This document shows positions 35,305 to 59,742 of a stretch of DNA of 60,625 bases, one piece after another (the first letter of the stretch is position 1; the number at the start of each line of letters is the position of its first letter). The notes beneath the pieces were generated by a model, which searched no databases, was not told the origin of the DNA, and saw only the letters and a program-made list of their open reading frames with translations. This stretch comes from a virus. Its lineage: Duplodnaviria > Caudoviricetes. The DNA lies in the IMG/VR virus record IMGVR_UViG_3300048996_000177, positions 1 through 60,625 of that record; one strand, written 5' to 3'. The translations under genes and the position numbers were made by a program.

Positions 35305-35310
35305 CGTCTT

Positions 35311-35613: not shown

Positions 35614-35619
35614 AGGCAT

Positions 35620-36474: not shown

Positions 36475-36556
36475 CCGATGTTTTGCCGGGTGGCGGTGAT
36501 GTGATACCGTCATCCGGCATTTCGTTAATACCACACAAAACTGGGAAGGTTTTGGT

Positions 36557-36982
36557 ATGAACACATCTGATGTTGCCGAACGCTTGAACACCACACCGAA
36601 AACCCTGCGACGATTCCTCCGTGGCGATGCCACGTACGCGAACGCGGGATCTGGCGGAAAATACGATTTCCAGGAATGCGACATGCCGACCCTGGCCAAA
36701 CGGTTCGGCAAATGGTCGTCGAAATCTCGCACCACCCCGGAAAAATCGGCCGACGTGTCCACACCGCGCCGTGTCCGGGAGGTTCGTGATTCTGTGGATG
36801 ACGCGGTGAACGTTCACGTCGTCCGCACGGCCGATCCTCGCACACGGGCCCAAATCCGAAAGCTCGCGGCGGAACGTGATCAACATCTGCGGCAATTGAT
36901 GATCGATGCGGGTCTGCACATTTCCCAAACCGGTGTCGCCAAGAAAAACAACCCCCGTTCCTACGCGAAGGTGGATGCGTGA
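36557..36982 (+). CDS. HTH DNA-binding protein
   Basis: MNTSDVAERLNTTPKTLRRFLR...GSGGKYDF. Confidence 0.75.
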   Translation: MNTSDVAERLNTTPKTLRRFLRGDATYANAGSGGKYDFQECDMPTLAKRFGKWSSKSRTTPEKSADVSTPRRVREVRDSVDDAVNVHVVRTADPRTRAQIRKLAAERDQHLRQLMIDAGLHISQTGVAKKNNPRSYAKVDA

Positions 36983-37488
36983 TGGCTATGCTCATTTCCT
37001 GGGGAATCGTATTCCTCATCATCGCGGCCATCTATACGGACAATATCGTGTGGGCGGTTCGTGATCTGTTCGGCGGGTTGGCAAATGTGCGTATGCCGTT
37101 CCTGGCGGTGTTCGACCAAATCCCGGTAATTCTCCGCGCGTTCGCCAACCTGGTATATGTCGTGGGGGTGTGGATATGGGCCCACATTCTGGACGCGTAC
37201 ATGATGGCCGTGGGCGGCTGGGTGGCCCGGTGGCTGGATTATGGTGAGGAGGGCCGCCGCCACCGGCGCCGGAATGGGGATGATGTCGTCACGGTGGCGT
37301 ACCTATTGACCGGGTTGGACCGGGAACACCCTTATATCGTGCCGACGCGGCATTCGGCGGACCGGTCGGTGGAGGATGACGCGGAGGGGGACATATCGCG
37401 ATGGAATGGGGCTGACGACGAATTCGCGGAATTACTCCACGATATGAACCTTGCGGGTGTGGGCGCTCATGGCGACGCATCCCTGTAA
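36979..37488 (+). CDS. Membrane protein
   Basis: Hydrophobic N-terminal half; GTGA overlap. Confidence 0.6.
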   Translation: MMAMLISWGIVFLIIAAIYTDNIVWAVRDLFGGLANVRMPFLAVFDQIPVILRAFANLVYVVGVWIWAHILDAYMMAVGGWVARWLDYGEEGRRHRRRNGDDVVTVAYLLTGLDREHPYIVPTRHSADRSVEDDAEGDISRWNGADDEFAELLHDMNLAGVGAHGDASL

Positions 37489-37798
37489 AACCTGCGGGCA
37501 ATGCCGCGCCAAAATGGGGTCTGACGAATGCTCCGTATGTTTTCTGATCCGGGTATTGGCCCAAGAACACGCGGATGGTGAACATACACGGCCGAACGCG
37601 TCCTGTATGGACTGTACACGCGTTGCCGACGCCATCGAGGCCCAACGACCCAAACGCCCGACGCGAAGGCGGCAGATTCGCGCACAGACGGGGAAACCGG
37701 GCAACCGGGCGAACCCGTTGGACCACTCCCAATGTGATCATGAGAAATCACCGAAAGCTCGTGCGGCGTGTCGGAAGGCGAATGCATCGTCCGTCTGA
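37469..37798 (+). CDS. Cys-rich hypothetical protein with C-terminal His/Cys module
   Basis: Three CxxC pairs; HSQCDHEKSPKARAACR. Confidence 0.65.
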   Translation: MATHPCKTCGQCRAKMGSDECSVCFLIRVLAQEHADGEHTRPNASCMDCTRVADAIEAQRPKRPTRRRQIRAQTGKPGNRANPLDHSQCDHEKSPKARAACRKANASSV

Positions 37799-37846
37799 TA
37801 TGATTCGTGGGGTACGGATCGAACAAACCGGAAGGTGTTCAACGAA

Positions 37847-38080
37847 ATGCGAAAACTGGGAATCATCATTGCGGCGGTTGCCCTGACGTTCGGGGCGGCG
37901 GCGTGTGACAACAACGACGGAAACGTCTATTCGAAAACGCTTGTCAAGTCATCCGGCAACGTCGTGATCAAGGTGCACGTCGGTACCGCACCGGACCGGT
38001 ACAAGGAATTCACGCACACGGCCCGTGAAGCGGCCAAATGCGACGTCGGTTCCGCGTACCCCGCATGCCTGACCAAATAA
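37847..38080 (+). CDS. Small lipoprotein
   Basis: MRKLGIIIAAVALTFGAAA-C lipobox-like signal. Confidence 0.7.
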   Translation: MRKLGIIIAAVALTFGAAACDNNDGNVYSKTLVKSSGNVVIKVHVGTAPDRYKEFTHTAREAAKCDVGSAYPACLTK

Positions 38081-38297
38081 TTGGGTTGATCCCGGTCGGG
38101 TGACGGCCGGGTTCCCCATGCACGGAGGGCCCCCATTCGATTACATCGGGTGGGGGTCTGTGCCAGTCGTTAGACGGATGCCGCCCATACGCAGGTGTGG
38201 ACCGGTTGACCATACCTAGGGTTCAGCTCCCGATAACGCTGTCACACAACGCCAGCTAAGGCGTTACCAACCTGTGAGAAGATTTCTTCGAAAAAAC

Positions 38298-38327
38298 CTG
38301 ACGTATGACAGATCCGGAGGGTAGGGT
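38298..38327 (+). promoter_or_regulatory. Promoter (CTGACG-N18-TAGGGT)
   Basis: Second copy of the promoter class seen at 35584. Confidence 0.6.
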
Positions 38328-38367
38328 TGTGTCAACACCGCAACAACGACCCGAACGGACGGCCATC

Positions 38368-38802
38368 ATGTCGGACACCACCACTTGCACCCACGAACTC
38401 GGCGACTACGACGAAACCTGTCCGACATGTGTGGCGCTGGCGGCCACGATGAATGACGAAAGTGTCACCGAAATCGTCGTCACCACGTCGACCGGGCGGA
38501 AAAACTTCACCCACGGTGATTGCGTTCACGATCGCACCCCGGCCGGGCGTGCGTTGTGCCGGGCGGCCGGTGGCCCGGAGGCGTACGCCGTGATCCACGG
38601 TTCGCGCAACGATGGTCGGGTGGCCGCCATGCCGACCCACGCCCGGGTGTCTGCCAATGCGGCGGCCGTCCACCGGTTGGGCACCGAAACCAACGCGGGG
38701 TTCCCCGTGTGCGGCACGACCAAATTCAACCCGGACACGGCGATCATGGTTGACGGCCCGACCACATGCAAAAACTGCATCAAAACGGAAAACGCTGCCT
38801 GA
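38368..38802 (+). CDS. Cys/His-rich hypothetical protein with His/Cys module
   Basis: HGDCVHDRTPAGRALCR; terminal H...CG...TCKNC. Confidence 0.7.
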   Translation: MSDTTTCTHELGDYDETCPTCVALAATMNDESVTEIVVTTSTGRKNFTHGDCVHDRTPAGRALCRAAGGPEAYAVIHGSRNDGRVAAMPTHARVSANAAAVHRLGTETNAGFPVCGTTKFNPDTAIMVDGPTTCKNCIKTENAA

Positions 38803-38804
38803 CG

Positions 38805-38848
38805 GAAAACCAACCACCTGGCCGGTTCGCCGGTTGGGGGTTTTCCTT
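38805..38848 (+). terminator. Intrinsic terminator-like hairpin
   Basis: GGCCGG-TTCG-CCGGTT core, outer GGAAAACC/GGTTTTCC. Confidence 0.6.
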
Positions 38849-38961
38849 GATCCTAATATTTGCATGTGCAACTGGCGTTGTACGCCTCCGTACGGGGTTG
38901 CGCCTCAGAAATTGGTACCTAGGGTTGGCGCGGCTCCACACCTGCCGTATACGGTCGTTTC

Positions 38962-39468
38962 ATGGCCCAAATGATGAAACTCTTGGTCCCCCCGACGTGG
39001 GACGAATTGATGGATGACGACGTGTACCGGACGTACGTCCGCCGACGTCCCAGATTGCCCGTGAACGTCGATCGTGGCGAACCGTGGTTGGTGGTCGCCC
39101 GACGATTCCCGGATACGGACAGACCATTGTGGGGTCTGAAACGGTTCGATGATTACGCCGACGCGTACCGGTTCGTGCGGGAAAAGCTCCGTGGTGAATT
39201 GTTCGAGGATATGGCGATCGTGTCCCGACCGAAACTCTGGAAACCGCCGGTGGGGTTCCGGTGGAACCAATCCAAATTCGGTTGGTGTGGAAGGTGTCGT
39301 CGGCCGTCCGTGTTCACGCACGTCACCAAACACCATGCCTTACGCGGGGCTCCCGTGTTGGCGACGGAAGACGGCAATCGGTGTCATTATTGTGGGGCAC
39401 GGGAAATATTCGCCTCCCGGCAATTCCGCCCCCGGAAAGCACCCGTAAAAGCACCCGTAAAGGAATAA
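38962..39468 (+). CDS. Hypothetical zinc-finger protein
   Basis: WCGRCRRP...HHA...RCHYCG; TACGGT, 6 bp, ATG. Confidence 0.7.
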   Translation: MAQMMKLLVPPTWDELMDDDVYRTYVRRRPRLPVNVDRGEPWLVVARRFPDTDRPLWGLKRFDDYADAYRFVREKLRGELFEDMAIVSRPKLWKPPVGFRWNQSKFGWCGRCRRPSVFTHVTKHHALRGAPVLATEDGNRCHYCGAREIFASRQFRPRKAPVKAPVKE

Positions 39469-39472
39469 GCCG

Positions 39473-39712
39473 ATGACCCGTCATACCTTGGCCACGGACC
39501 TGAAAAACGCCATCGCGAAGGAAGATGAAGAATCCGCACAAATGACCGGTGACGGGAACCCGTTGTTCGGCCATATGCCGGAAACGGCTGCCGCGTTGCG
39601 GATATTCATCGAGTCGTGGCATGGTCATCTATTGGATGTAACAACCCGAAAAAATTGCCGGTGTCTCATGTGCGGGACCGGCCGAATGATGTTGGAGGAA
39701 TTTCATGGGTGA
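39473..39712 (+). CDS. Hypothetical protein
   Basis: AAGGA RBS; CRCLMC. Confidence 0.6.
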   Translation: MTRHTLATDLKNAIAKEDEESAQMTGDGNPLFGHMPETAAALRIFIESWHGHLLDVTTRKNCRCLMCGTGRMMLEEFHG

Positions 39713-42018: not shown

Positions 42019-42032
42019 ACAAATTGATACGA

Positions 42033-42617
42033 ATGGAGGCGATTAAAATCATCATAGTTGAGGGACCGGATGGTGCAGGGAAAACAACCCTGATCAATAA
42101 AATGGTGCATACGCTCAACCTTCCGGTCCACGCACGGTCGGCCAATTCGGACGGGTCGGCCACCCAATCCACAGAAGGCAGTCGGGGGGCAAATTTATCG
42201 TTATGGGCGTACAACGACGTGACGACACAACTGAATCAGCCCACATCCATTTACGATCGGCATTGTCTGATCTCGGAGTTCGTTTATGGTCCAATTCTCC
42301 GGGCTCATGTGCCCGTCGAAATGACTGGACCGGCAACGAGGTTATTGATCCAGATGTTGGCGAAACAGGTGTTGGTGGTGTATTGCCGTCCCCCGAATGA
42401 AAACCTCGTCATCAACTGCCGGAAAACACCCCAGCCCATTCCACACCTGAATGACCAGAACAATGTGTTGAAGGTGGCCGCCGGTTATGACGCGTGGCGG
42501 GTGAATTGGATGGGTCAGTCCACAATGTTCGATTACACCAACCCGAACGACTTCGCGTCGGTCATGTCCGCGTGCCGCCTGCACATCGCCCATTTCGAGA
42601 ACATGAGGAAATCATGA
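42033..42617 (+). CDS. P-loop deoxynucleoside monophosphate kinase (thymidylate kinase-like)
   Basis: IIVEGPDGAGKTT; IYDRH..SE.VYG. Confidence 0.82.
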   Translation: MEAIKIIIVEGPDGAGKTTLINKMVHTLNLPVHARSANSDGSATQSTEGSRGANLSLWAYNDVTTQLNQPTSIYDRHCLISEFVYGPILRAHVPVEMTGPATRLLIQMLAKQVLVVYCRPPNENLVINCRKTPQPIPHLNDQNNVLKVAAGYDAWRVNWMGQSTMFDYTNPNDFASVMSACRLHIAHFENMRKS

Positions 42618-43141
42618 CGGTAGTTAGTTGCCCCAGTAATTGCAAGGTGTCGGCCCAGCATTTTCACAAGGATGGGAAAACTGTGTGGGGCAACCCACCA
42701 TATGAAGAATCCACCCTGGCGCGCGTGCAGCGGGAATCGGGGGAGTGGCGACAGATCGCATATCCGACCACGGCCACCCCGGAATTGCAAGCGTTGGGTA
42801 TGGCGGAAGAAGTGGGGGAGGTGTGTCACGCGGTGTTGAAAAACATCCAGCAAATTCGGGGGTACAACGGGGAAAAGACCATCGCGGAAGTGGGTGACGG
42901 GCTGGCCGACACAATCATCTACGCGTGTGGGGTGGCTACGGCATTCGGTATCGACCTGGACGCCGAATTGGCGCGGGTGTGGAACCACGTCCGGGATCGC
43001 AACATCACGCAAGGATCCATGGGCAGTGGCAATACCAAATGCCCCCGGTGTGAATCCCCGGAGTCGAAGTTGCATCCAGCGGTTCAATTCGAGGGTGAAG
43101 TTCAGCCGTGTCCCCACGAGTTTCACAAGTCCGCCGAATGA
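42614..43141 (+). CDS. MazG-like nucleotide pyrophosphohydrolase
   Basis: LGMAEEVGEV...DGLADTIIY. Confidence 0.82.
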   Translation: MTVVSCPSNCKVSAQHFHKDGKTVWGNPPYEESTLARVQRESGEWRQIAYPTTATPELQALGMAEEVGEVCHAVLKNIQQIRGYNGEKTIAEVGDGLADTIIYACGVATAFGIDLDAELARVWNHVRDRNITQGSMGSGNTKCPRCESPESKLHPAVQFEGEVQPCPHEFHKSAE

Positions 43142-44079
43142 TCAACGCGCTGGGATTTGCCACGGCCAATGACGCACATGAAGGCATGTGCAACAAGCTG
43201 ATGTTTGGCGAGAAATGGGGACGAGATTACGACTGGTCGCAAGGGACCGAAGTCGGATTGCACAATGTCGTCATCGGTGCGGATCGGTTCGACTGGGAAT
43301 ACGATCTGAAACGGCTGTGGATGGCCAAGTCCCGGTGGAACATGATGGTGCGGCAATACCTGGACCCGGATGCGGTTGAGGATTGGTTTGCGAAGATCGA
43401 GGATCGATTGGTGGGTAAAGGACGTGGGATTGCTGTTCTACGCACCAAATTGGTGCAAGGCAAAGGAACCGGGCGCGGTGTGCGTCGCCGGTGGGGATCG
43501 TGCATGCTCTCCATGTCATATCGCACCAATCCCATTCCGACCATCACCCTTCATTCGAGGACCACGTATTTCGGGTATCTCGCGGCTATGGACATCACGG
43601 TTGCCCACGTCCTTGCTCGATACATTTCTACGATTGTCGGTATCGATCCGGCGGAAATGAATTTCGTCTGGAATCTGGAACTGGCGCAATTCCACGGGTT
43701 CCGGTCATTGGCGTGGCCGTTGGGTAACCCGGATATCCGTGAACAGATGGACGACGATGTCCACACCCACAAGACGTTTCCAGCTAAACCGCCAAAGGGC
43801 CAACTCCATCTCCCGGTTGCCGGTGGTTACCGAAAGGCGTTGGATGGATATGCACGCCTGATGAAATCGGACCTGGAAAACAAGCTGTATGGGGACGAGT
43901 CATTCTCATCATTCGCGCGGGTACGCCGCCGGTATCACGCTGAAGTTCATGGACCGGAATTCGCCGCACAATTTGAAGGTGGTACGCGTAACAAAGGGGG
44001 ACACAACATGTTCACCCCACTTCCACACCTCCATTCGTCCACATTGGACTTGACACCCATCGGATTTGAGGAATTATAG
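43138..44079 (+). CDS. Highly divergent thymidylate-synthase-fold protein (Asp-type)
   Basis: WGSCMLSMSY...TLHSRTTYFGYLAAMD...FVWNLELAQFH lines up by eye with the TS core PC...QRSxDxxxGxPxN...HIY. Confidence 0.55.
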   Translation: MINALGFATANDAHEGMCNKLMFGEKWGRDYDWSQGTEVGLHNVVIGADRFDWEYDLKRLWMAKSRWNMMVRQYLDPDAVEDWFAKIEDRLVGKGRGIAVLRTKLVQGKGTGRGVRRRWGSCMLSMSYRTNPIPTITLHSRTTYFGYLAAMDITVAHVLARYISTIVGIDPAEMNFVWNLELAQFHGFRSLAWPLGNPDIREQMDDDVHTHKTFPAKPPKGQLHLPVAGGYRKALDGYARLMKSDLENKLYGDESFSSFARVRRRYHAEVHGPEFAAQFEGGTRNKGGHNMFTPLPHLHSSTLDLTPIGFEEL

Positions 44080-44472
44080 ATGTCCAACGAATTGACCGAA
44101 GCCGAAGTTGGTAGAACGCTGCGTTTCGTCCAGCGCGGGATGACCAACGAAGAAATCGGCTTCCAGTTACACATCGGTACCACGGCAGTAAAAAACCGGC
44201 TGTCCAAGTTGATGGCCCGGTATGGGTGCCGCAATCGTACCGAACTGGTTCAAGCCGCGATGTCCCGTGGTTTGTTGTCGGACCCGACCATTACGGTGAA
44301 CACCGGTCGGCACAGCAACGGCCAGTATTTTGTCGTCGTGATCACGCCCGGCCGGGAAGACACCGTGGCCAGTTGGTGTTCCAAGGCCGATGCCGACATG
44401 TTGGCATGTGCATTGCGGGGATACCTCAATGCGTCCACCATCACCGATTGGCGGAAGGCACGGGGAAACTGA
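44080..44472 (+). CDS. LuxR/NarL-type HTH protein
   Basis: LTEAE...GMTNEEIGFQLHIGTTAVKNRLSKLMARYGCRNRTELV. Confidence 0.85.
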   Translation: MSNELTEAEVGRTLRFVQRGMTNEEIGFQLHIGTTAVKNRLSKLMARYGCRNRTELVQAAMSRGLLSDPTITVNTGRHSNGQYFVVVITPGREDTVASWCSKADADMLACALRGYLNASTITDWRKARGN

Positions 44473-44473
44473 A

Positions 44474-45409
44474 ATGTTCGCATTTTTCGGGGCCAACACT
44501 ATCATGGAACTGGAACCTAACGTCGGTGATTGGACCGAGCACATTGACCGACTGCGGAAAGCGTTGCGGGATGCGCCGCTGGTCGAACGCGGACGGGTAC
44601 ACGCACAGGATGTATCCAGCGACCCCTCATTTGGCACGTATGAGCTTGCCAACATCGTCGTGACATATCCGGTGCCGACATACGTTCGATCGTTACAGGC
44701 GCATATGAGCCCCAATTTGCCATGGGCCGAAGACCACTTTGCCGAACGGGTGGGTGGGGAGCCGTTGAACCCCGCACCCAGTGAAGCGTGGTGGCCGTAC
44801 AAAAAAGATGGCAATGCGGCGCACAAGGACGGCGAGAAATTCAGCCACACGTACCCGGAACGCATGTGGCCGACGACGGCTAACACCGGGTGGATGTGGG
44901 ATAACGACAATGGTTCCACGCCTGTCATGGAATTGGAATCCAGCGGTCAGGGATGGGTGTGGAAAGGAACAGACACCGTCGTTGATTTCCAGGCGGTGGG
45001 GTACAAGCGGGCCCGACGACACGGTATTCGATACGACTATGGTGATTTGAATGCAGTGGTTGATCTCCTATCCCGCGACATTCATACTCGTCAGGCGTAT
45101 CTACCCATTTGGTTCCCAGAAGATACAGGCGCAATTGAAGGTCAGCGTGTCCCATGTAGTTTGGGATACCACTTCATCAAACGTGGGAATCAGATTGATT
45201 GTCAATACTTCATGCGGTCATGCGACTTTTTCCGACATTACGTTGACGACGCATATATGGCTGCACGGCTCCTGCAATGGGTGGTACGCCACACCCGCGA
45301 GTCCAATCCACAACTGGTAAGGGATGGATTGTCAACGGGTAATCTGACGATGTTCATTTCCAACCTCCACGCTTTTGTCGGCGATGAATATCTGTTGAAC
45401 GGAGAATGA
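44474..45409 (+). CDS. Thymidylate synthase homolog, dCMP hydroxymethylase/methylase-like
   Basis: TRQA, catalytic PC, MRSCDFFRHYVDD (Asp at the E. coli ThyA Asn177 position), ISNLHAF. Confidence 0.8.
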   Translation: MFAFFGANTIMELEPNVGDWTEHIDRLRKALRDAPLVERGRVHAQDVSSDPSFGTYELANIVVTYPVPTYVRSLQAHMSPNLPWAEDHFAERVGGEPLNPAPSEAWWPYKKDGNAAHKDGEKFSHTYPERMWPTTANTGWMWDNDNGSTPVMELESSGQGWVWKGTDTVVDFQAVGYKRARRHGIRYDYGDLNAVVDLLSRDIHTRQAYLPIWFPEDTGAIEGQRVPCSLGYHFIKRGNQIDCQYFMRSCDFFRHYVDDAYMAARLLQWVVRHTRESNPQLVRDGLSTGNLTMFISNLHAFVGDEYLLNGE

Positions 45410-45675
45410 TGGATACTGAATCCGATCGGGAAGCTGAGGCGGAATTCCGTCCACACCTGACGAAGTATTTAGCGGCCACTGGACAGCTTCGGGACAACCA
45501 CTTGTTGATGCACTACGGTGTTCTTCACGTCGCCGTAGCGATGGATGCAGATGCCGAACACACCGTTGGATTTATCCCTGATTCCGACTGGCCATACGCA
45601 TATCAATTGGGAGCGTTACAATACGCGCTTACGGTCCACAAGGGACAGATCGTTCGAGATGGTGATGAACTTTGA
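45406..45675 (+). CDS. Hypothetical protein
   Basis: Overlap-coupled ORF inside the cluster. Confidence 0.6.
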   Translation: MMDTESDREAEAEFRPHLTKYLAATGQLRDNHLLMHYGVLHVAVAMDADAEHTVGFIPDSDWPYAYQLGALQYALTVHKGQIVRDGDEL

Positions 45676-46094
45676 CCAGAACCAGTCGGGACCAGATGTT
45701 GATGGATATGGCGTTCATCGTGGCCGCGCGTGGTACATGTTCGCGGTTGCAGGTGGGCGCTGTGGTGTCCATGGACGGCCGTGTGTTGTCATCGGGGTAC
45801 AACGGCGCACCGGCGGGTTTCGACCACTGTATGCACAGTCCAGCCCAAGATATGCCGTGCACGCAAGCGGTTCACGCAGAAGCCAATGCGATCGTGTTCG
45901 CCGCACGGCACGGTGTGGCAACCGGCGAAGCTATTCTCCACACCACACATCTGCCGTGTCCCGCATGCGCCCGGTTAATCATCAATGCGGGGATCCGCGT
46001 GGTGACATGGCAAGAACCATTTCGGAATGATTTTGGACTGGAACTATTAGAACGTGGAGGAGTTGAGTGGTATCAGCACCCCAGAACCGGATAA
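45672..46094 (+). CDS. dCMP deaminase
   Basis: GYNG, HAEANA and PCPAC zinc motifs. Confidence 0.9.
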   Translation: MTRTSRDQMLMDMAFIVAARGTCSRLQVGAVVSMDGRVLSSGYNGAPAGFDHCMHSPAQDMPCTQAVHAEANAIVFAARHGVATGEAILHTTHLPCPACARLIINAGIRVVTWQEPFRNDFGLELLERGGVEWYQHPRTG

Positions 46095-50998: not shown

Positions 50999-51235
50999 AT
51001 GAGCCAACAGTATTTGATCGTGGCCGTCATCGAAGTAGATGAGCCGCAACTGTCCAACATCGTTGCCGCGTCGTCATATGTCGAACGATTGCTCATGGGC
51101 GACGGCACGATCATCAATCGGTGCAAGGTGATCGCAACTGATGAAACAGCCGGGAAGGTGATTTCGTGGGGGGAGAATGACGACCGCATATTCACTGCCA
51201 ATCCGATTCTCCCCGAAATGGGGTACAACACCTGA
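50999..51235 (+). CDS. Hypothetical protein
   Basis: TGATG coupling to thyX. Confidence 0.6.
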   Translation: MSQQYLIVAVIEVDEPQLSNIVAASSYVERLLMGDGTIINRCKVIATDETAGKVISWGENDDRIFTANPILPEMGYNT

Positions 51236-52014
51236 TGGATGTCACCCTGGTTGCCCACACCGTCCTGTCCGAAGATATTACGAGCACCCACATCAGCAGC
51301 GCCATCGAACGATGGATGGCCCCGGTGGATGGTAAAACCCGGTCTATCGCGGACTACGATTATGACGCGGATGTGTTGGCCGAGTTCGCCGGACGTTCGT
51401 GTTATCAGTCGTTCAACCGGCCGAATCCGAAGACTGCCGCCAACAATGATTACCTGGCACACATTCTCGAATCGGCGCACGAATCGGTTCTGGAACACGC
51501 GTCGGCTACGTTCTACGTGACGGGTGTGTCGCGGTCACTCACGCATGAATTGATCCGTCACCGGCACTTGTCATATTCCGAGTTGTCCCAACGGTTCGTG
51601 GACATCGCACCGTCCAAAGAGAACAAGGCCGGTATGGCGTGGATCGTGCCATCCGGGTTAAACGTGACCGACGACCATGAAGTCATCCGGCCCATCACGG
51701 CGGTGCTGAACGACATCGTAACGCCCCTTTACCGGTCGATGGTGGAATCGTTGATGAGTCGTGGGAAAACGCGTAAGGAAGCGCGTCAGGCCGCGCGTGC
51801 CGTCATGCCGAACATGATGGAAACCAGAATTGTCGTCACGGGCAACATGCGGGCGTGGCGGGATGTGATCAAGAAGCGATACCACGTGGCGGCAGACGCG
51901 GAAATTCGGGAGTTTGCAAAGATCGTTTTGAATGAATTACGATCGATTGCGCCGAACACATTCCAGGATATGCCACACGAGCCATTCGGTTCGATGGAAA
52001 AGGGAAAGGGGTGA
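51235..52014 (+). CDS. thyX: FAD-dependent thymidylate synthase ThyX
   Basis: EFAGRSCY, HESVLEH, RHRHLSYSELSQR, GNMRAW, EIR. Confidence 0.93.
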   Translation: MDVTLVAHTVLSEDITSTHISSAIERWMAPVDGKTRSIADYDYDADVLAEFAGRSCYQSFNRPNPKTAANNDYLAHILESAHESVLEHASATFYVTGVSRSLTHELIRHRHLSYSELSQRFVDIAPSKENKAGMAWIVPSGLNVTDDHEVIRPITAVLNDIVTPLYRSMVESLMSRGKTRKEARQAARAVMPNMMETRIVVTGNMRAWRDVIKKRYHVAADAEIREFAKIVLNELRSIAPNTFQDMPHEPFGSMEKGKG

Positions 52015-52885: not shown

Positions 52886-53653
52886 ATGGCATCAGAGTTG
52901 AAGCGCGCCAAAGCCAAGGTCATGGACATGACCGACGTCAAGGAACGCGGTCCGTTCAACCCGGTCCGACAGGAATCCGGGGATTACCTGGCGAAGATCG
53001 TCGACGTGTTCGAAACCGACAGCAAGGCGGGTGACCCGATGTGGGTTTTCGCCGTGCAACTGGACGAGCAGAAGTCGGCCGTATACCCGATGTACTGCCT
53101 GTTGAACCCGGACAACTTCTGGAAGATCCGAATGATGTGCGTGGCCACAGGAATGGCCATTCCGAAGAAGCGCATCAAAATCGAACCGGCCAAGCTGATC
53201 GGAAAGATGATCGGCATTTCGTTGGAAGACGACGAATACGACGGCAAAATGAAGTCCGTCATCGACAAGGCATTCCCCAAGTCCGAACTGGGCGGGAAGG
53301 CCGACGACGAAGACATCGACGATGATGACGTTGATGACGAGGATGAAGACGACGACGAGCCGGAACCGCCCAAGAAGTCGAAAAAGGCACCGGCCAAGAA
53401 ATCGAAGAAAAAGGCCGCTCCTGTCGAGGAAGATGACGACGAGGATGAGGACGAAGAAGACGACGATGAGGATGACGAGGACGAAGAGGAAGAAGTCCCC
53501 GTCAAGAAAAAGGCCGCCGGAAAAAAGGTGAAGGGATCGACCAAGGTTCCCGCCAAAAAGGCCAAGGCCAAAAAGAAGGCCAAGGTCGAAGACGACGACG
53601 ATGACGATGTGGATGACGACGACCTCGATGAACTCGACGTTGACGACATTTAA
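52886..53653 (+). CDS. ssDNA-binding protein (DUF669-like) with a long K/D/E tail
   Basis: GDYLAKIVD...SKAG.PM...LIGK...EYDGK core, acidic C-terminus. Confidence 0.75.
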   Translation: MASELKRAKAKVMDMTDVKERGPFNPVRQESGDYLAKIVDVFETDSKAGDPMWVFAVQLDEQKSAVYPMYCLLNPDNFWKIRMMCVATGMAIPKKRIKIEPAKLIGKMIGISLEDDEYDGKMKSVIDKAFPKSELGGKADDEDIDDDDVDDEDEDDDEPEPPKKSKKAPAKKSKKKAAPVEEDDDEDEDEEDDDEDDEDEEEEVPVKKKAAGKKVKGSTKVPAKKAKAKKKAKVEDDDDDDVDDDDLDELDVDDI

Positions 53654-53866
53654 TCCCATCGGGTAACGTCCATTATGTACGGCGGTTTCATCCCGTTGAC
53701 ACACAATAGAATCCCCCTTTGACCCGTATTTAGTCGGATACGGATCTAACCCCCGGTCGATTCTCCCCCCGCATCGGCCGGACGGAGTGCCCCATCGTTG
53801 CCGTTTTCCTTCCCAGTTTTTCGGCGATGGTGGGGCATTTCCACACCCAAATGAGTTTTGGAGACA

Positions 53867-54259
53867 ATGATGGCCGGGCCCGAGACGAGAATTGTCGCGT
53901 CGATCAAAAAGGAATTGAAGGCGCGAGGTGCATTCTGTTTCAAGGTACACGGATCAGAACATATGATGGCGGGTTTGCCCGATCTGATCGTGTGCTACAA
54001 AGGATTATTCATCGGATTGGAGGTGAAAACCCCGGTGGGTGTGGTGTCGGCGGTCCAGCATTACGTGCATGGGCAAATCCGATCGCCCGGCGCGGATGGC
54101 ATCGCAGAGGTGGTCACATCGGCCGCTGAGGTCGTGGCCATATTGAATCGGGTCGATGTGTACGCGGCGGCCGTATCGCGCGGCACAGGGCCAATCAGGC
54201 GTCATTTGGCGTTGTGGCGTGATCGCAATAAAAAAGCCACCCCGAAGGGTGGCCAGTGA
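53867..54259 (+). CDS. VRR-NUC domain nuclease (probable Holliday junction resolvase)
   Basis: E..I...GLPDLI...LEVK...S..Q. Confidence 0.85.
   Translation: MMAGPETRIVASIKKELKARGAFCFKVHGSEHMMAGLPDLIVCYKGLFIGLEVKTPVGVVSAVQHYVHGQIRSPGADGIAEVVTSAAEVVAILNRVDVYAAAVSRGTGPIRRHLALWRDRNKKATPKGGQ
54230..54253 (-). terminator. Intrinsic terminator for the leftward operon
   Basis: Minus strand reads GCCACCC-TTCG-GGGTGGC-TTTTTT. Confidence 0.85.
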
Positions 54260-54272: not shown

Positions 54273-55358
54273 TTACCCGTTGGCCGCGCGGTACGCGGAT
54301 CGGCATGCCGTACGCGCCGATGTGGTGGATGGGTGGGTGCACGCCGCATGCGACAGGCGTCCGTTGACCATCGCGGGACCGCCATCGGTGGGTGTGGAAT
54401 CCAACCGCCCAACCGGGGGGACGGCGTCGGCAACGATTTTAATGGCGTTGATCAGATCCACGATTTCGGATGCACGGCGGGGGGTGGCGTCACGGGCGAC
54501 AACCAGGTTTCGCAACCCGATCCATGAATCGACGTCAACCCCGGCGTCGTTCAAGCTTTTGATCAGGTTGTCGACAACCACGATGTTCGGGTCGAAATCC
54601 TCGACGCGGGTGGTGGGTTCCGGGGTGTTGTCCGCGACCGTGGAGGTTTCGATTTCGGCATTGGTGCGGGGGGCATCATCGGTGCGGGTCAGGCGTCCCC
54701 CGCAAATCGGGCCGATGCCCGCGTCGATCGATTCCGGGTTGGTCAGGGTCCGTCCGCACATCATGCACCGGCCCGTCCGGCGACCGAACGCGGCAGCGAT
54801 TTCATACGACACCACGTCGTCCGACGACAGGTTTTTGACCACACCTGGGGTGTACACCCATTCGCCCGTGGCCGGGTCCAATACGACCGCGTACGGTTTG
54901 CCGGACGTCCGCGAGATTTTGACGCGGGCAACGGTGTCGTCGTACGTGTAAAAACCTTCCGCGATGACGCGACCCCGGGTGATCGGTTTCGCGGGGTTGA
55001 CCGTGCGCACGATGTTGGTGCCCGGGATGTTGCGCGTCACCGGTGCGTCATCCACCGGGGTGATTTTGGTCATTTTGACCGGACGGGATTTGCCCGTGGA
55101 TTTGCGTCCCGTGGACGCCGGTTTGGTTTCCCCGCCCAATTTGATGCCGCCGTTGGCCATGGCACCGGCCGACGACAACGGGCCGTCGTATGTGGCGGCG
55201 CATTTGTTCGCCACGGTCGCCCGTTGGGCCGGTGTGGTGTCGCGTGATGCGAATTCGGCCACCATGCCAGGGTTGGTGCGATCGTAGGCGTTGATCAACG
55301 CCTTGGTGGTCAAGTGCTCGTACCCAGTACGGGTGTTGGTGCCGCGTGTCGTCGTCAT
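54273..55358 (-). CDS. DUF6011-like zinc-finger protein with C-terminal His/Cys module
   Basis: CMMCGRTLTNPESIDAGIGPIC; HAACTHPSTTSARTACR; TACGAT, 6 bp, ATG. Confidence 0.8.
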   Translation of the reverse strand: MTTTRGTNTRTGYEHLTTKALINAYDRTNPGMVAEFASRDTTPAQRATVANKCAATYDGPLSSAGAMANGGIKLGGETKPASTGRKSTGKSRPVKMTKITPVDDAPVTRNIPGTNIVRTVNPAKPITRGRVIAEGFYTYDDTVARVKISRTSGKPYAVVLDPATGEWVYTPGVVKNLSSDDVVSYEIAAAFGRRTGRCMMCGRTLTNPESIDAGIGPICGGRLTRTDDAPRTNAEIETSTVADNTPEPTTRVEDFDPNIVVVDNLIKSLNDAGVDVDSWIGLRNLVVARDATPRRASEIVDLINAIKIVADAVPPVGRLDSTPTDGGPAMVNGRLSHAACTHPSTTSARTACRSAYRAANG

Positions 55359-55442
55359 GCGACGATCGTAAGGCATTTTGAAGATCCAACTGGAAAAATG
55401 ACCCCACACCCCGCAAGGTGTGAGGCCATCGTTATCAACCGG

Positions 55443-55712
55443 TTAGGTCATGTCGAACCCCCGTTCGATCGCCGTCACCATGTCGAACGTGGCGTTAGGG
55501 CCGGTGATGGACGGGTGACGGGCGATCATGCCCGCGAACACGTCGTACACGGCCGACATGGCCGCACCGTGGTCCACCAATGTGCCGTGCCCCAACGCGG
55601 CGGACGACCACATCAACAGGGTATTCGGTCCGTCCACACCCAACGCCTTGGCGACCGTGACGGCGGTGTGGGCCAAGAGTTCAATCGATTCGATGTTCAT
55701 AGATTTCACCAT
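55443..55712 (-). CDS. Hypothetical protein
   Basis: ORF in the leftward array. Confidence 0.55.
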   Translation of the reverse strand: MVKSMNIESIELLAHTAVTVAKALGVDGPNTLLMWSSAALGHGTLVDHGAAMSAVYDVFAGMIARHPSITGPNATFDMVTAIERGFDMT

Positions 55713-55719
55713 ATCCCGA

Positions 55720-56454
55720 TCAGGATTCGATGTGTCTGCGGGTGTCCCCACCAACGCGGGTGTTGCCGATGTCGGCCCGGTTGCCCGCACGGTATCCGGC
55801 GGTCACCCCATCGCGAGAATTCACCGAAGTGTTTTTGTATACGGCCCGGTTGGACACGATACCGGCTGTTGCGGTTTCATAATGGCGTTGGACCATTTCC
55901 CCCCGATCCCGTACGACCAGGGCCGCACCGACCGTTTCAGACACGTTTTTGGACCGTGCATGGCGCAACCGGTCCAATACCCGGCCGACATATCCGTGGG
56001 CGAACGAAACCTTCCACGCACGGGCGTTGTCAGACCCGATGTATTCGCGCCAATCGACGTCCATGTGGTTGGCCAATTGCAATTCGATGGAGGTATACAT
56101 TTGCTGGACGAACGCGATATCTGATTCGAATCCCCACAGACCCATGAACGACCGGTCGGCCGCCAAGGTGGGACGGACGTTGTACAGGAATGCCAGACCC
56201 GTCATCAATTCGCGGCGAGCTTTGATATACGGTGCGTTTTTCATCCGCAGAACCATGACGTTGGTGAACATTTCTTCCGGCGCGTGGTTCGAACCCGCCG
56301 CCGCGCGGATTTGCGCGTCAGAAATCGTCATCGACAATTGCAATTCGGAAGCTTTGGCCAGGTAATTGGCGGCCATTTCCTCCGTAATGCCGGGATCTTC
56401 CGCCATCGCCAGGAGTTTGGCGATTTTGGACGCGTAATCGTGAGGTTTGGTCAT
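55720..56454 (-). CDS. DUF2786-like protein
   Basis: KIAKLLAMAEDP...A...L N-terminus; GFESD and SFAHG...GYRAG..A motifs. Confidence 0.78.
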   Translation of the reverse strand: MTKPHDYASKIAKLLAMAEDPGITEEMAANYLAKASELQLSMTISDAQIRAAAGSNHAPEEMFTNVMVLRMKNAPYIKARRELMTGLAFLYNVRPTLAADRSFMGLWGFESDIAFVQQMYTSIELQLANHMDVDWREYIGSDNARAWKVSFAHGYVGRVLDRLRHARSKNVSETVGAALVVRDRGEMVQRHYETATAGIVSNRAVYKNTSVNSRDGVTAGYRAGNRADIGNTRVGGDTRRHIES

Positions 56455-56459
56455 GGTCG

Positions 56460-56939
56460 TCACACGTCCCGATCGTTGGTGGTGGCGATGGTCAACAGGT
56501 GTGGGATTGGTGTGGTGTACGTGGCCGACACGCGCCATTCGGACACGTCACCCGGGTTGTTTTCGTACGGGTTGCGCCACCGGACGATGGCCACGTCGTC
56601 GCCGTCGATGGTGTCGAACCAGACATCGGTTTTGTTGTCGCGGGACCGGTACACGATGTCCGCGCGGTAATCGTCGACCGGACGGAACCCGGACGTCGTC
56701 AGGTATGACGCGAACAGGTTTCGGGCGGATTCGTCGTCCACCGGCCGGATCGTGGCGGGCAGGGTTCGTACGGGTCCGGGTCGATAATCGGCGCAATCCC
56801 GTTGATGCCGAATGACCGGCGGACGACCCGAATACGATCGGGCGGGACGGCCACATTCGGTGCACGTGGCGGGTGTGGGACGGGGGAACATCGGTTGCGG
56901 GGTGGTGAACCGCATCGGTGGGACGTCGTCGGATTTCAT
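56460..56939 (-). CDS. Hypothetical protein (CTEC...H...C)
   Basis: GGAGGT RBS before ATG 56939. Confidence 0.6.
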   Translation of the reverse strand: MKSDDVPPMRFTTPQPMFPRPTPATCTECGRPARSYSGRPPVIRHQRDCADYRPGPVRTLPATIRPVDDESARNLFASYLTTSGFRPVDDYRADIVYRSRDNKTDVWFDTIDGDDVAIVRWRNPYENNPGDVSEWRVSATYTTPIPHLLTIATTNDRDV

Positions 56940-57038
56940 TGGTTTACCTCCACGTCGTCGACCCATGTTTTGGGTTCGAATTTCAGGATTTCGTCGGTGG
57001 GTGGGGGCGGCCGATCGTGAACCGCCCCCGTGGGTGGA

Positions 57039-57389
57039 TTATTCGTCGTCGTCGTCGGTGCAACCATCGGGGAATTCGGTGTGTTCGTCGATGTCGTGCC
57101 CGCATTTCGGGCAAATGTCGAAATCCAACACCAACATGTCGTGCCCGGGGTTGGACAACATGGCGTTGATCATATCCGCCACCATGTGACCCAATTCGCC
57201 GATTTTCTCCAATTCGGACCGGTCACCATCGGGCATCATGTTGCGGACCGCGTCGTACATGTCATCGTACAAATCCTCGTCCGTGATGGACAACGCGATC
57301 ATGATTCCCCGGATACCGGTGATCGTGACGGCGTCCACCTGCGGAACGTTGGAAGGGAACGGCGGGAAGGTGGGGCGGGTATCGGTCAT
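57039..57389 (-). CDS. Acidic hypothetical protein with CPKC...H...C
   Basis: ATG at the predicted transcription start. Confidence 0.7.
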   Translation of the reverse strand: MTDTRPTFPPFPSNVPQVDAVTITGIRGIMIALSITDEDLYDDMYDAVRNMMPDGDRSELEKIGELGHMVADMINAMLSNPGHDMLVLDFDICPKCGHDIDEHTEFPDGCTDDDDE

Positions 57390-57395
57390 ACGATG

Positions 57396-57424
57396 ATCTT
57401 AGACCCCAATCGACGTCGTGTCAG
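57396..57424 (-). promoter_or_regulatory. Promoter for a leaderless gene
   Basis: Minus strand CTGACA, 17 bp, TAAGAT, 6 bp, ATG. Confidence 0.65.
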
Positions 57425-57462
57425 GCGTTTTTCATGATCCATCTGGGGTTGTTATCAAGGCG

Positions 57463-59706
57463 TTACGTTGTCTGCCGTGCCCGTCGTCGTGGCCGTCGTG
57501 CCGCGCCATCGATTTCCACGGCGGTTGCGCGCCGCAACGTCCGTTCGCCGGTCGAACGTTTCCGGGTAGGTGTGGAGGTAACGTTGACCTGAGCCTGTTC
57601 GTGAATCGCACGCGTGAACACCTTGACCGACAAAAACGGCCTGGTGCGTTTGCCCGGATCCGGTGCACCTTCCACGACGTACCCGTGCAACACGAGTTGA
57701 TCAAGACATAATTTCGCCGATTGCGGGGATAGTGATCGACCGGTGGATTCTTTCACCTCACGGATGATTGCACGAACGCCTATCCCGTTATGGTTTTGTT
57801 CCAACACCTCGGAAATCTTTTCCATTGACGCAGCCATTTTTAATGGGGCTTCACGTTTAATCGCCTGTCCGTCCGGCAATGTCAATTCGTAATGCATGGT
57901 GGATGATAGGTCGGTCGGGTCGTCCACCCACACCGTGCGTTCCACGGCGAAATCTTCCGTCATCACCTCGTCGCCTTTAATCTCCCAATTCTGCAACACA
58001 ACGGTCTTTCGGGTGACCGGATCGCTGGATGACTTTTTAATCTCCACCGATATCAGGAATCGTCCCCATGCGGTCAGTCCCACACCGGACGTGCGGTTCG
58101 AGCCGGTCCCCGTGCCAGTCTTGTTCCAGTGATGGGAGATGATCAGCGCACAGTTGTACCGCTGGCACACTTCCTGGATCGGTTTCAACGCCTGGCCGAC
58201 GTCCGACAGCTTGGCGAAGTCCACACCCGATGCGGCCAGATAAAACGGGTCGATGATGCACAGGACGGCTTTCGTCGTGCGGATCTTTTCTTCCAATTCA
58301 AGAATATGATCTTCATCTTTGACCTGTGGCACCGATAACAGGATATGGAGTGGGAGGCGGTCAATTTGTTTTTCGGTCAACCCTTTGGCTCGGGCGATGG
58401 CGTCGATCCGCCGGACTTGCTTTCGTTCGGATCCTTCACCAAGACAGAGAATTACGTCGCCTTGGAAATTGCACTCAAACCGGTCCATCCATTTCGTGCC
58501 CGATGCCGCGCTGATGCCCGCGTCCAGCATCACCAACGACTTCCCCGCTTTGTCTTCTGCCGCCAACATCCCGTAATCACCTTCTGCGATGATCCCGTCA
58601 AACAGGTATCGGGGTGTGGGAGCGTTGGCCACACGTTGCCGCATCTGCCGGTACCCGACGAAATTCAGTTCCGCCTGGTCGCTGCCGTCGTCGGCTTCAT
58701 CGAACGTGGGTTCCGTGGCGGATGACGGTTGTTTCGGCCCGTTCGCTTTCAGCCAGATTCGTTCGACGTCGTTACTGATGCGCCAATCACTGCCCCATTT
58801 ATCTATTGCGGCAGGGAACGTGCGGACCAGCGCATGAGTGTTTTCCCGTGTGACGCCTTGTTCTTTACACGTGCTGACCAATTCGTAAATGGCATCACTG
58901 CGGGAATACGTGGTGCTGCCCGGTGTGGCGTGATTGTTGAACGCCTTACGTACGGGCTTGGGCAATGATTTGATGGGAGGTGCGGGGTGACTGGACGATA
59001 CCGACGACGCACTGCCGTCTGATATCGCTTCTGCCGCTTCTTTTTTGAACACCGACCACGCGATATTCGTCATGTCCGTCAGCCGGTCCACGACGGTTTT
59101 AGCCCGCGCTGGGCGGCGTGAACCGATGGACTTCAACGTCACGTTTTTCGGGACGGTGGTTTTCCAGTTCAACGTTCCTGGCAATCGCAACAGGTCGTTT
59201 TCAGCGATCTTGGTATCCGCGCCCAACGCTTCTTTCAACGCCCGGCACATCGCTTGGTGGTTTGCCGCATTGACCGGTTTGGCCAATTCTATGTATACGT
59301 GCCGGTGCCCGTCTGACCCGGACAGCACCGTCATGGCCCCCAGCGCGTTGATCCGGTCGATTTGTGCGTCTGTCGGGGGATGGTCGACGTCGGCCCACAC
59401 CCACCACAGCGGTGCGTTCGTACCCGCTTTCCGGGATGGTGTGGACCGCAATGCCGGGTTGATGAAAACCTCTACGTTCTCCGGCCGTGTCTCGGGGTTA
59501 TTGACCAATTCATCGATCTCCCCCAACATGTCGTCCTTGTCCTGCGGCCATGCGTAATATCGTTCCCGGAAATCGCCTTTGCGGAATCGCGGTTTCGTCG
59601 TCCGGGGATTGTGGCCGAACGCCATAGCGACGAATCCTTCACGAGTGCCGAACAACCGCGATAGGAAATACGACGCTGTGTCCAAATCAAATCTGTCCTC
59701 ATTCAT
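57463..59706 (-). CDS. DNA primase-helicase (RepB-like AEP primase plus AAA_25/RecA-like helicase)
   Basis: WADVD, SGS..HRHVY, LLRLPGTLNWK; AEDKAGKS, IIDP, HHWNK. Confidence 0.87.
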   Translation of the reverse strand: MNEDRFDLDTASYFLSRLFGTREGFVAMAFGHNPRTTKPRFRKGDFRERYYAWPQDKDDMLGEIDELVNNPETRPENVEVFINPALRSTPSRKAGTNAPLWWVWADVDHPPTDAQIDRINALGAMTVLSGSDGHRHVYIELAKPVNAANHQAMCRALKEALGADTKIAENDLLRLPGTLNWKTTVPKNVTLKSIGSRRPARAKTVVDRLTDMTNIAWSVFKKEAAEAISDGSASSVSSSHPAPPIKSLPKPVRKAFNNHATPGSTTYSRSDAIYELVSTCKEQGVTRENTHALVRTFPAAIDKWGSDWRISNDVERIWLKANGPKQPSSATEPTFDEADDGSDQAELNFVGYRQMRQRVANAPTPRYLFDGIIAEGDYGMLAAEDKAGKSLVMLDAGISAASGTKWMDRFECNFQGDVILCLGEGSERKQVRRIDAIARAKGLTEKQIDRLPLHILLSVPQVKDEDHILELEEKIRTTKAVLCIIDPFYLAASGVDFAKLSDVGQALKPIQEVCQRYNCALIISHHWNKTGTGTGSNRTSGVGLTAWGRFLISVEIKKSSSDPVTRKTVVLQNWEIKGDEVMTEDFAVERTVWVDDPTDLSSTMHYELTLPDGQAIKREAPLKMAASMEKISEVLEQNHNGIGVRAIIREVKESTGRSLSPQSAKLCLDQLVLHGYVVEGAPDPGKRTRPFLSVKVFTRAIHEQAQVNVTSTPTRKRSTGERTLRRATAVEIDGAARRPRRRARQTT

Positions 59707-59713
59707 GTCACGT

Positions 59714-59742
59714 AATGTATAACGTGAGAAATTTAAAGACAA
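59714..59742 (-). promoter_or_regulatory. Leftward promoter for the primase gene
   Basis: Minus strand TTGTCT, 17 bp, TACATT, 7 bp, ATG 59706. Confidence 0.55.

Follow-up and report, generated by a model that had tools for sequence, protein, structure and literature searches.

Depletion of AG and CT dinucleotides and of close inverted AG/CT pairs in an actinophage-like genome

The stretch of DNA analysed here, called the window throughout, is the IMG/VR virus record IMGVR_UViG_3300048996_000177 (Caudoviricetes), the complete 60,625-bp genome of a soil-type phage with a 145-bp terminal direct repeat, and the feature under study is its deficit of the dinucleotides AG and CT, originally reported for five small leftward genes at 54273-57389. 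PHROG and Pfam matches outline a siphovirus layout on the plus strand (terminase, portal, capsid, tape measure and GH25 endolysin) and a replication and nucleotide-metabolism module at 40-54 kb, and a leftward gene unit spans 54.3-60.6 kb. The calls of open reading frames (ORFs) are approximate and come from log-odds scores of codon usage, with 15 ORFs that had family hits as the training set; PHROGs were searched with 61 ORFs and Pfam with 73 ORF queries. The genome is actinophage-like, and its nearest relatives among named phages are actinophages, with which it shares about 50% protein identity. Its DNA polymerase is nearest to those of the Streptomyces phages KimJongPhill and Zuko; its capsid, among named phages, is nearest to that of Arthrobacter phage Wollypog. 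The block 54273-57389 had no megablast match among 50,697 phage records, and no tRNA genes, sought as a clue to the host, were found in the genome. The closest full relative is G001, a syntenic IMG/VR contig of 58.9 kb with a capsid 71% identical.

The AG/CT deficit and its two extreme blocks

Genome-wide, AG occurs 2103 times (rho 0.49) and CT 1400 times (rho 0.43), and the symmetrised rho for AG/CT, 0.47, is as low as that of TA (1449 copies, rho 0.49). A recount of the two intervals singled out by the original prediction returned its figures exactly, with neither AG nor CT in the 311 nt at 54958-55268 and five AG, four of them in CAGG, and no CT in the 480 nt at 56461-56940; the codon preferences it described are also present (Leu as TTG in 591 of 1229 codons, Glu as GAA in 727 of 971). 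Composition-preserving shuffles, chosen beforehand as the test that could overturn the avoidance, fail to reproduce the low counts. The five leftward ORFs hold 23 coding-strand AG against 149 +/- 8 and 51 CT against 130 +/- 8 when each codon is redrawn from the position-specific base frequencies of its gene without changing the amino acid, and amino-acid-preserving shuffles, with or without codon usage kept, never come near the observed counts. At the codon junctions of these ORFs, for which synonymous codons were shuffled within genes, AG occurs 10 times against 31 +/- 3.4 and CT 13 times against 59.5 +/- 4.7. All three codon phases are depleted (the 3-1 junction over 75 ORFs stands at 0.56 for AG and 0.28 for CT), as are the 7.8 kb outside called ORFs (291 AG of 554 expected, 175 CT of 418 expected), and the earlier view that the effect lies at the DNA level, not in codon choice, stands on all three counts. 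Compared with G001, the eight AG-containing trinucleotides are the eight most reduced of all, at 0.32-0.66 of the G001 level, and Markov-corrected tetranucleotides are close to 1, so that this first layer is truly a dinucleotide effect. GAG is the most depleted AG trinucleotide (0.36) and AAG the least (0.74); GA and GG show no depletion.

The near-absolute avoidance described for the leftward genes is real and is not unique to them, because a second block at 35.3-39.7 kb is equally extreme (Table 1). In the leftward block the plus strand carries 52 AG (rho 0.30) and 22 CT (rho 0.11) at a G+C content (GC) of 60.7%; in the second, the ORF 35620-36093 has one AG of 28 expected and four CT of 26, and AG/CT-free runs reach 240 and 239 bp. 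Both strands are affected, as originally stated, though not equally: in both blocks coding-strand AG (rho about 0.1) is rarer than coding-strand CT (about 0.3-0.4), and outside them the values are about 0.55 and 0.4. The primase/helicase-like gene lies on the same strand as the leftward block, yet its depletion is only at the ordinary genome-wide level; being a minus-strand gene patterned like the plus-strand genes, it indicates that the pattern tracks the coding strand, not the genome strand. The most depleted blocks are GC-richer (59-63%, with 0.62-0.84 at third codon positions) and have few Lys, Gln and Glu codons. Synonymous choice in the leftward block is one-sided, with AAA:AAG at 28:3 for Lys, CAA:CAG at 9:2 for Gln and GAA:GAG at 35:5 for Glu, against a Lys AAA:AAG ratio of about 1:1 outside the extreme blocks, and 10 of its 24 surviving coding-strand AG are AGG.

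Both blocks start at promoter-like matches and presumably comprise early genes. The box TTGATAAC upstream of the leftward block recurs at 55431-55438, and was dropped as a shared early promoter element because two copies in the genome are reached by chance in 40 of 100 shuffles. Homologues in G001 were found for 2 of the 15 block ORFs, none of the five in the leftward block (tblastn) and 36557-36982 and 38962-39468 in the second. Scans of IMG/VR with 55720-56538 and 54273-55409 returned no relative; in tblastn the latter matched phages of Streptomyces, Gordonia and Nocardia through the DUF6011 core alone, and 35620-36093 found partners for no more than its first 24-35 residues, the phages concerned having rho 0.64-0.94. 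No donor of the extreme blocks emerged from these searches. Milder one-strand blocks of a similar kind occur in two related phages, G003 and G004.

Table 1. Coordinates of features in the window
Feature	Position	Strand	Remarks
NUMOD3-motif ORF	12031-12957	+	Motif N-terminal; between portal and head-morphogenesis genes
Second extreme block	35264-39712	+	Small rightward ORFs, per-gene symmetric rho 0.09-0.42
Sigma-70-like promoter match	35276-35304	+	TTGACA-17-TATATT, 11/12 positions; consensus match only
Kinase-like ORF	42024-42617	+	PHROG/Pfam: PHROG 761, PHROG 671 and Pfam PRA-PH, jointly with next ORF
MazG-like pyrophosphohydrolase ORF	42494-43141	+	PHROG/Pfam, see previous row
Thymidylate synthase (TS)-fold protein #1	43108-44079	+	PHROG 13667, no match in Pfam; gene tree delimits the depleted clade
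GerE/LuxR-type helix-turn-helix ORF	44080-44472		Between the two TS-fold genes
TS-like protein #2	44390-45409	+	PHROG 160 at 6e-27; Pfam Thymidylat_synt 22.2 bits, below cut-off 24.3
dCMP (deoxycytidine monophosphate) deaminase	45672-46094	+	Pfam dCMP_cyt_deam_1 at 4.7e-20
ThyX thymidylate synthase	51235-52014	+	Pfam Thy1 at 1.8e-45
HNH endonuclease-like ORF	53858-54259		Family scan
Terminator-like hairpin and T-run	54229-54254	-	GGCCACCC-TTCG-GGGTGGC, then TTTTTTATT; by eye
Reported block	54273-57389	-	Five small leftward ORFs, per-gene symmetric rho 0.10-0.30
ORF with DUF6011	54273-55409	-	Pfam/PHROG; leftward block
Longest AG/CT-free interval	54956-55269		313 bp; maximum 79 bp in 20 mononucleotide shuffles
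ORF	55443-55790	-	Leftward block
ORF with DUF2786/DUF7168	55720-56538	-	Pfam/PHROG; leftward block
ORF	56460-56966	-	Leftward block
ORF	57039-57389	-	Leftward block
Promoter-like stretch	57390-57460	-	TTGATAAC followed by TAAGAT, the latter 6 nt from the ATG of 57039-57389
Primase/helicase-like gene	57463-59742	-	49% identical to G001; rho AG 0.55, CT 0.44

Inverted AG/CT pairs in the window and its relatives

Counting AG and CT at every start-to-start distance k, against a baseline of pairs in the same codon phase at 20-121 bp, revealed a second layer: where AG stands on opposite strands within about 7 bp, it is avoided a further 2-10-fold. AG-Nx-CT with x = 1, 2, 3, 5 and 9 occurs 12, 14, 5, 18 and 5 times against 40-55 expected (AG>CT ratios 0.30, 0.29, 0.09, 0.37 and 0.09 at k = 3, 4, 5, 7 and 11), and CT-Nx-AG with x = 0-4 occurs 4, 15, 6, 16 and 18 times against 39-57 expected (CT>AG ratios 0.09, 0.38, 0.11, 0.36 and 0.46 at k = 2-6). 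At the avoided spacings synonymous-codon shuffles give 0.62-0.98 (CTAG 0.23) and G001 gives 0.82-1.28, CTAG excepted. Same-strand AG>AG and CT>CT pairs show no depletion, and five other pairs of a dinucleotide with its reverse complement lie between 0.68 and 1.64, the exception being TT>AA at k = 2 (TTAA 0.30; 0.10 in G001). An unbiased scan of 256 dinucleotide pairs at 13 gaps placed CTN2AG, AGN3CT and AGN9CT as the most depleted in the window, put inverted AG/CT pairs at the top in two related phages, G005 and G004, and at ranks two to four in a third, G003, and found none among the top 24 in G001. Flanking bases matter little; TAG is mildly enriched among the surviving close pairs (0.15 vs 0.07), and a flank-specific half-site was dropped with this mild excess as its only sign. 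All 16 flank pairs of NAGNNNCTN are present in G001, so that the avoided word consists of four specified bases. A dependence that is confined to the inverted arrangement, specific in spacing and tied to the opposite strand points to a two-fold-symmetric reader of duplex DNA. Between the two causes that the original prediction put forward, selection against a very short motif is therefore the better one, amended in that the avoided entity is more than the dinucleotide and includes gapped palindromes. As a separate observation, CTAG has 4 copies genome-wide, where about 230 are expected from base composition.

Pair avoidance as a source of the dinucleotide deficit was gauged from both ends. In G001, 45% of the AG/CT sites lie in pair kinds that the window avoids, and removing about 20% clears them (greedy removal). 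A Monte-Carlo equilibrium of random sequence under the pair penalties of the window settles at rho 0.79 for AG and 0.66 for CT, and hard exclusion of 11 classes at 0.77 and 0.63; the pair-penalty model also yields CT rarer than AG. In these models about half of the AG/CT deficit would be a by-product of pair avoidance. An origin of the whole deficit from pairs was rejected, since the equilibria (0.63-0.79) stay above the observed 0.43-0.49. Isolated AG and CT may also be selected against, or past episodes may have left a lasting deficit; a single-site cost such as that of a nickase, non-palindromic targets containing AG, or the scars of past spacing classes may make up the remainder.

Depletion of AG/CT is not a trait of the phage family or of the host type: G001, in which 38 of 75 window ORFs are matched at 25-74% identity, has rho 0.97 for AG and 0.89 for CT (0.93), and Wollypog and KimJongPhill stand at 1.07 and 1.03. 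Closer relatives are depleted to different degrees, L018 (86.8% nucleotide identity over 2.5 kb) at 0.54, L017 (capsid 76%) at 0.72 and L016 (capsid 75%) at 0.76. Between the window and L018, 114 AG/CT positions are shared, 38 are found only in the window and 37 only in L018; gains and losses are equal, so that the deficit appears stationary and not decaying, at least in that structural region, which also opposes amelioration, the idea that core genes are still losing AG/CT.

The avoided spacing set is different in each of the window, G003, G004, G005 and G006. The 58.7-kb G005 (rho 0.89, 0.77) has a single AGNNNCT against about 152 expected and AG-N9-CT at 0.45, with nothing else avoided. G004 (rho 0.61, 0.63) has 4 AGCT, 5 AGNCT, 3 AGN3CT, 10 AGN5CT, 3 CTAG, 8 CTNAG and 4 CTN2AG against baselines of about 51-93, and no CTN3AG of about 69. 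G003 (rho 0.50, 0.45) avoids AGN1-3CT, CTAG and CTNAG (AGN2CT 7 vs 44, CTNAG 7 vs 40), and G006 (rho 0.70, 0.69) mainly AGNCT. L017 shares with the window the avoidance of CTN2AG, AGN5CT and AGN9CT, and AGNNNCT is absent from L018, L054, L057 and L062. G005 (L117-L119) also under-uses the non-palindromic AGNAG (93 of 192 expected) and CTNCT (84 of 191), which hints at a further, asymmetric AG-containing target.

The predicted cytosine-modification module and the depleted clade

Upstream of the deaminase lie genes for two divergent TS-fold proteins, and with ThyX the genome thus has three predicted enzymes that modify pyrimidines at C5. An AlphaFold2 model of protein #1 (mean predicted local distance difference test score 84) gave as top Foldseek matches the dCMP hydroxylase AfhB of phage HY126 (9iqu, E 2e-6), the CMP hydroxymethylase MilA and T4 dCMP hydroxymethylase, at modest TM-scores (template modelling) of 0.35-0.55; the structure of the best match was released in 2025. 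Protein #2 has a catalytic-Cys motif, and its PDB alignments cover the PC...RS.D segment. Placed by eye, with T4 dCMP hydroxymethylase as the guide, Asp presumably stands in both proteins where thymidylate synthase has the Asn that reads uracil (in protein #2 within ...RSCDFFRHYVDD...). The accessory set of T4 type (kinase-like, MazG-like, dCMP deaminase and ThyX, with functions taken from family names) is present, and the module resembles the T4 scheme of cytosine replacement; a modified cytosine is thus predicted from gene content.

We built a tree of protein #1 from 57 rows, the window and 56 IMG/VR loci carrying this gene. All depleted phages in the tree fall in one clade of 16 (the window and 15 loci) with 99% support (Shimodaira-Hasegawa-like approximate likelihood ratio test on a quick tree). 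The 15 loci have a median rho of 0.85 (0.48-1.03), against 1.07 (0.88-1.20) for the 41 outside, and strongly avoided gapped classes occur in 6 of the 15 and in none of the 41. This association may reflect shared hosts or shared descent. The kinase/MazG/TS-like/deaminase module is also found in phages with normal AG/CT, such as KimJongPhill, so that it is not sufficient for the deficit; since only the clade with the long-branched variant of protein #1 is depleted, a modification-dependent nuclease is a candidate agent.

Candidate agents of the purge

We give about an even chance to a purge driven by selection on double-stranded DNA, the agents being nucleases of two-fold symmetry with AG/CT half-sites; such nucleases would probably be encoded by the host and might depend on modification. 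The agent would read the two-base half-site AG and do most harm where AG stands on both strands within a few base pairs. Restriction-like endonucleases of the clade's hosts are the likeliest candidates; they would act as homodimers or through paired nicks on AG-Nx-CT and CT-Nx-AG, specifying about four bases with a spacing that varies between hosts. Whenever a further spacing class came under attack, the phage would have to destroy one AG or CT per such pair, and many successive classes could sum to a deficit at the dinucleotide level. That the agent is a nuclease, and a host-encoded one, we infer from two patterns: a word lost almost completely (1 of about 152) has the look of nuclease avoidance, and a host origin is simplest where the avoided sets differ between sister phages. 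We rate highly a sub-variant in which modification-dependent nucleases would read the predicted modified cytosine of the phage in a C-T context; it would explain why only the clade with one TS-fold variant is affected.

Several observations weigh against this account. Pair exclusion leaves about half of the deficit over (0.79/0.66 vs 0.49/0.43), and G006 stands at 0.70 with only AGNCT (0.41) and CTAG avoided. AGCT escapes avoidance in the window, with 53 copies (ratio 0.96), where a simple nick-distance model predicts otherwise, and AG-N9-CT is avoided while N6-N8 are not. The spacing classes, at least 10 in number, demand either many enzymes with 4-base sites or one enzyme of loose geometry, and we know of no AG/CT enzyme of such geometry and no such set of 4-base enzymes. 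Pure mutual exclusion might predict an anticorrelation of AG and CT densities, and there is none (Spearman -0.04 in 600-bp bins); a local competition between AG and CT was rejected on the same figure. Fully modified cytosine would mostly block classical Type II enzymes, and strong avoidance would then be surprising except in response to enzymes that can cope with the modification or depend on it. Common descent confounds the association with the clade, which amounts to about one evolutionary event, with an intensity that varies within the clade. Finally, the only bacterial lead to a host is a single match of the endolysin, at 59% identity in a metagenome-assembled genome of Amycolatopsis; this assembly has rho 0.87 and, in 324 kb, no pair avoidance but that of CTAG, and with neither a capsid homologue nor a matching composition Amycolatopsis was set aside as the host.

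None of the tests accounts for the greater extremity of the two blocks. They may go further because they are promoter-headed sets of small, presumably early genes; the searches returned no close relative over the full length of any of these genes, and their amino-acid composition has also moved away from Lys, Gln and Glu. Weaker protein constraint alone fails to explain their synonymous one-sidedness. Candidates are a more depleted donor, selection that is stronger on DNA expressed first, and a further pressure on AG at the RNA level. In T5 and T7, the early or first-entering DNA shows a stronger, region-specific loss of nuclease sites; neither extreme block here is terminal, their positions being 35-40 and 54-57 kb, and their early timing is suggested by promoter-like matches.

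Among known phenomena, the phage fits restriction-site avoidance with an unusually short shared half-site, the agent and the host being putative. Short palindromes and Type II sites are reported to be avoided in genomes (PMC3077040, PMC4687349), and the likeness extends to two-fold-symmetric motifs that are under-represented beyond composition, specific to lineages and at times nearly absent. The differences are that only four bases are specified here, with any spacer bases and flanks, that many spacer lengths share one half-site, and that the dinucleotide deficit is two-fold and locally ten-fold. Known Type II sites of the same classes are longer, e.g., CaiI CAGNNNCTG, PstI CTGCAG, XhoI CTCGAG, Eco147I AGGCCT and Eco47III AGCGCT (listed in PMC3299994), and a literature search for an AGNNNCT specificity turned up only the longer CaiI site.

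The nickase Nt.CviQII, which nicks R^AG, and its methyltransferase M.CviQII, which methylates AG (PMC3017599), read essentially AG and are the only enzyme pair of this kind that could be documented (PMC3017599, PMC3299994). With a nickase of this type, close nicks on both strands would become breaks, giving a cost per single site as well as per pair. This pair differs from the present case in being encoded by a eukaryotic virus and in protection by methylation, not avoidance, and a plain nick-distance rule misfits the exemption of AGCT and the sharp N3 and N9 classes. Neither a methyltransferase nor an Nt.CviQII-like nickase family was detected among the ORFs scanned against PHROGs and Pfam, where distant or novel enzymes could escape. 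Modification-dependent restriction enzymes have specificities of about 2-4 bp; among them the actinobacterial ScoMcrA prefers DNA with 5-hydroxymethylcytosine, and EcoWI, a dimer, cuts more efficiently where two sites are present (all as described in PMC7461809). Enzymes of this kind (SRA/SBD-HNH proteins such as ScoMcrA, and the MspJI type) are alike in their short specificity, and the window encodes a T4-like module; the known members differ in that they cut at a distance and need no half-sites 0-9 bp apart. To our knowledge, no enzyme reads a modified C followed by T.

An unlikely alternative is self-avoidance, in which a short-site nuclease or nickase of the phage clade itself, used in host DNA breakdown or packaging, has its sites purged instead of methylated. 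The near-absolute loss of single classes, as in G005, would suit an enzyme that is always present, the trait tracks a phage clade, an R^AG nickase is indeed encoded by chloroviruses (PMC3017599), and the window has an HNH endonuclease-like and a NUMOD3-motif ORF. However, the HNH ORF and an exonuclease are common to phages with normal AG/CT at 36-58% identity, the ORFs scanned matched no methyltransferase and no additional nuclease family, the window alone would require at least 10 classes, and the phage enzyme would have to evolve rapidly to account for the differences in spacing among close clade members. The lone AGNNNCT of G005 and the five of the window have no common genomic position; likewise, the single G005 site was dismissed as a packaging site because the positions of the sites that remain in the window and G004 follow no consistent pattern.

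We regard as very unlikely a context-dependent mutation in which C, or modified C, in 5'-CT-3' is deaminated or miscopied, turning CT into TT and AG into AA. Consistent with it, AA/TT is up 1.33-fold and AAA/TTT 2.9-fold relative to G001, GC is 55.8% against 60.2%, and TS-fold enzymes and a dCMP deaminase are encoded. Yet CC/GG (1.36-fold) and AT (1.37-fold) have risen as much as AA/TT, so that AG and CT were lost by several routes, and the synonymous choice for Lys and Gln differs between gene blocks (AAA 90% vs about 45%). Nor can such a mutation tie an AG to a CT 3-11 bp away at set spacings and in the inverted arrangement only. The original prediction had offered C-to-T erosion in a CpT context as one cause; it is contradicted by this opposite-strand spacing dependence, by the GC-richness of the most depleted blocks and by the balance of 38 against 37 gains and losses relative to L018.

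Selection at the level of RNA or translation, against AG (as AGG/GGAG resembling a Shine-Dalgarno sequence, or under a defence by RNase or RNA modification) and CU and strongest in early mRNAs, is highly improbable as the main cause. It would account for coding-strand AG being the rarer in both extreme blocks whatever the genome strand, and for the AGG share of the AG that survive in the leftward block, one of which stands in GGAGG before the ATG at 56938; a dinucleotide-specific defence aimed at RNA exists in the GA-specific mRNA ADP-ribosyltransferase CmdT (PMC11618068). However, coding-strand CT is also depleted, roughly uniformly (0.3-0.45), GA and GG are spared, and a dependence on inverted pairs, with same-strand pairs showing nothing, is a property of duplex DNA. 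RNA-level pressure may add to the extra loss of AG in the two blocks. DarT1, which ADP-ribosylates guanosine in single-stranded DNA, was dropped as a reader of AG, since no consensus motif is reported for it (PMC11543638).

Type I-E CRISPR (clustered regularly interspaced short palindromic repeats) systems, common in Actinobacteria, use protospacer adjacent motifs (PAMs) of the AAG/AGG/GAG type, and ATG/CAT is another I-E PAM. That the phage has reduced usable protospacers on both strands against a host Cas type with an AG-core PAM is barely plausible: the strand-symmetric deficit of a 2-3 base motif would fit, and PAM depletion in phages has been reported (PMC4246573), but PAM avoidance predicts no dependence on a nearby inverted partner, AAG is the least depleted AG trinucleotide and ATG/CAT is enriched (1.44).

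Selection by nucleases that read AG/CT half-sites would have consequences beyond this phage. The deficit resolves in part into a ladder of 4-base gapped palindromes with one half-site, discrete and specific to each sister phage, and phage sequence alone could thus predict the specificity of nucleases still to be found, e.g., AGNNNCT for the host of G005, and guide the search for them. If the enzymes are modification-dependent, the clade would link a variant of a cytosine-modification enzyme to the counter-defence that it provoked. A bolder version, in which soil Actinobacteria hold a new family of dimeric nucleases with an AG/CT half-site, host-specific spacings and probably a dependence on modification, and in which this family drove the dinucleotide purge of the clade, is tentative and rather doubtful; under it the promoter-headed blocks would be genes that need to come through the first minutes after infection intact. 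In animal viruses, suppressed dinucleotides are a classic sign of innate immunity at work, and such a family, if real, would provide a bacterial counterpart of their CpG suppression. Literature searches for dinucleotide suppression in phages returned no report, only general work on the avoidance of palindromes, restriction sites and PAMs, and a paper on bacterial dinucleotide bias (PMC11282364) does not mention ApG or CpT.

Some further features of the window deserve mention. The hairpin at 54229-54254 lies at the junction between the leftward block and the replication genes, which run rightward. In the window the primase/helicase-like gene opposes the replication module, and its counterpart in G001 (33511-35631) is co-oriented with the module; the gene order indicates that the leftward unit arose by inversion or rearrangement. 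The longest ORF at 56460-56966 overlaps the upstream gene; that its true start is the internal ATG at 56938 is suggested by a GGAGG preceding this codon by 8 nt. The NUMOD3-motif ORF, which shares only 80 residues of homology with G001, may be a homing-endonuclease-like insert. GATC is about two-fold over-represented genome-wide (observed/expected 1.95). The ORFs 33553-34419 and 52886-53653, both on the plus strand and with very high coding scores, contain long Asp/Glu-rich and Lys-rich tracts made of GACGACGA-type repeats (a 44-nt family with 24 copies), and their acidic products may be DNA mimics or histone-like proteins. In 33553-34419, Lys is encoded by AAG in 51 of 52 codons, an island where AG persists.

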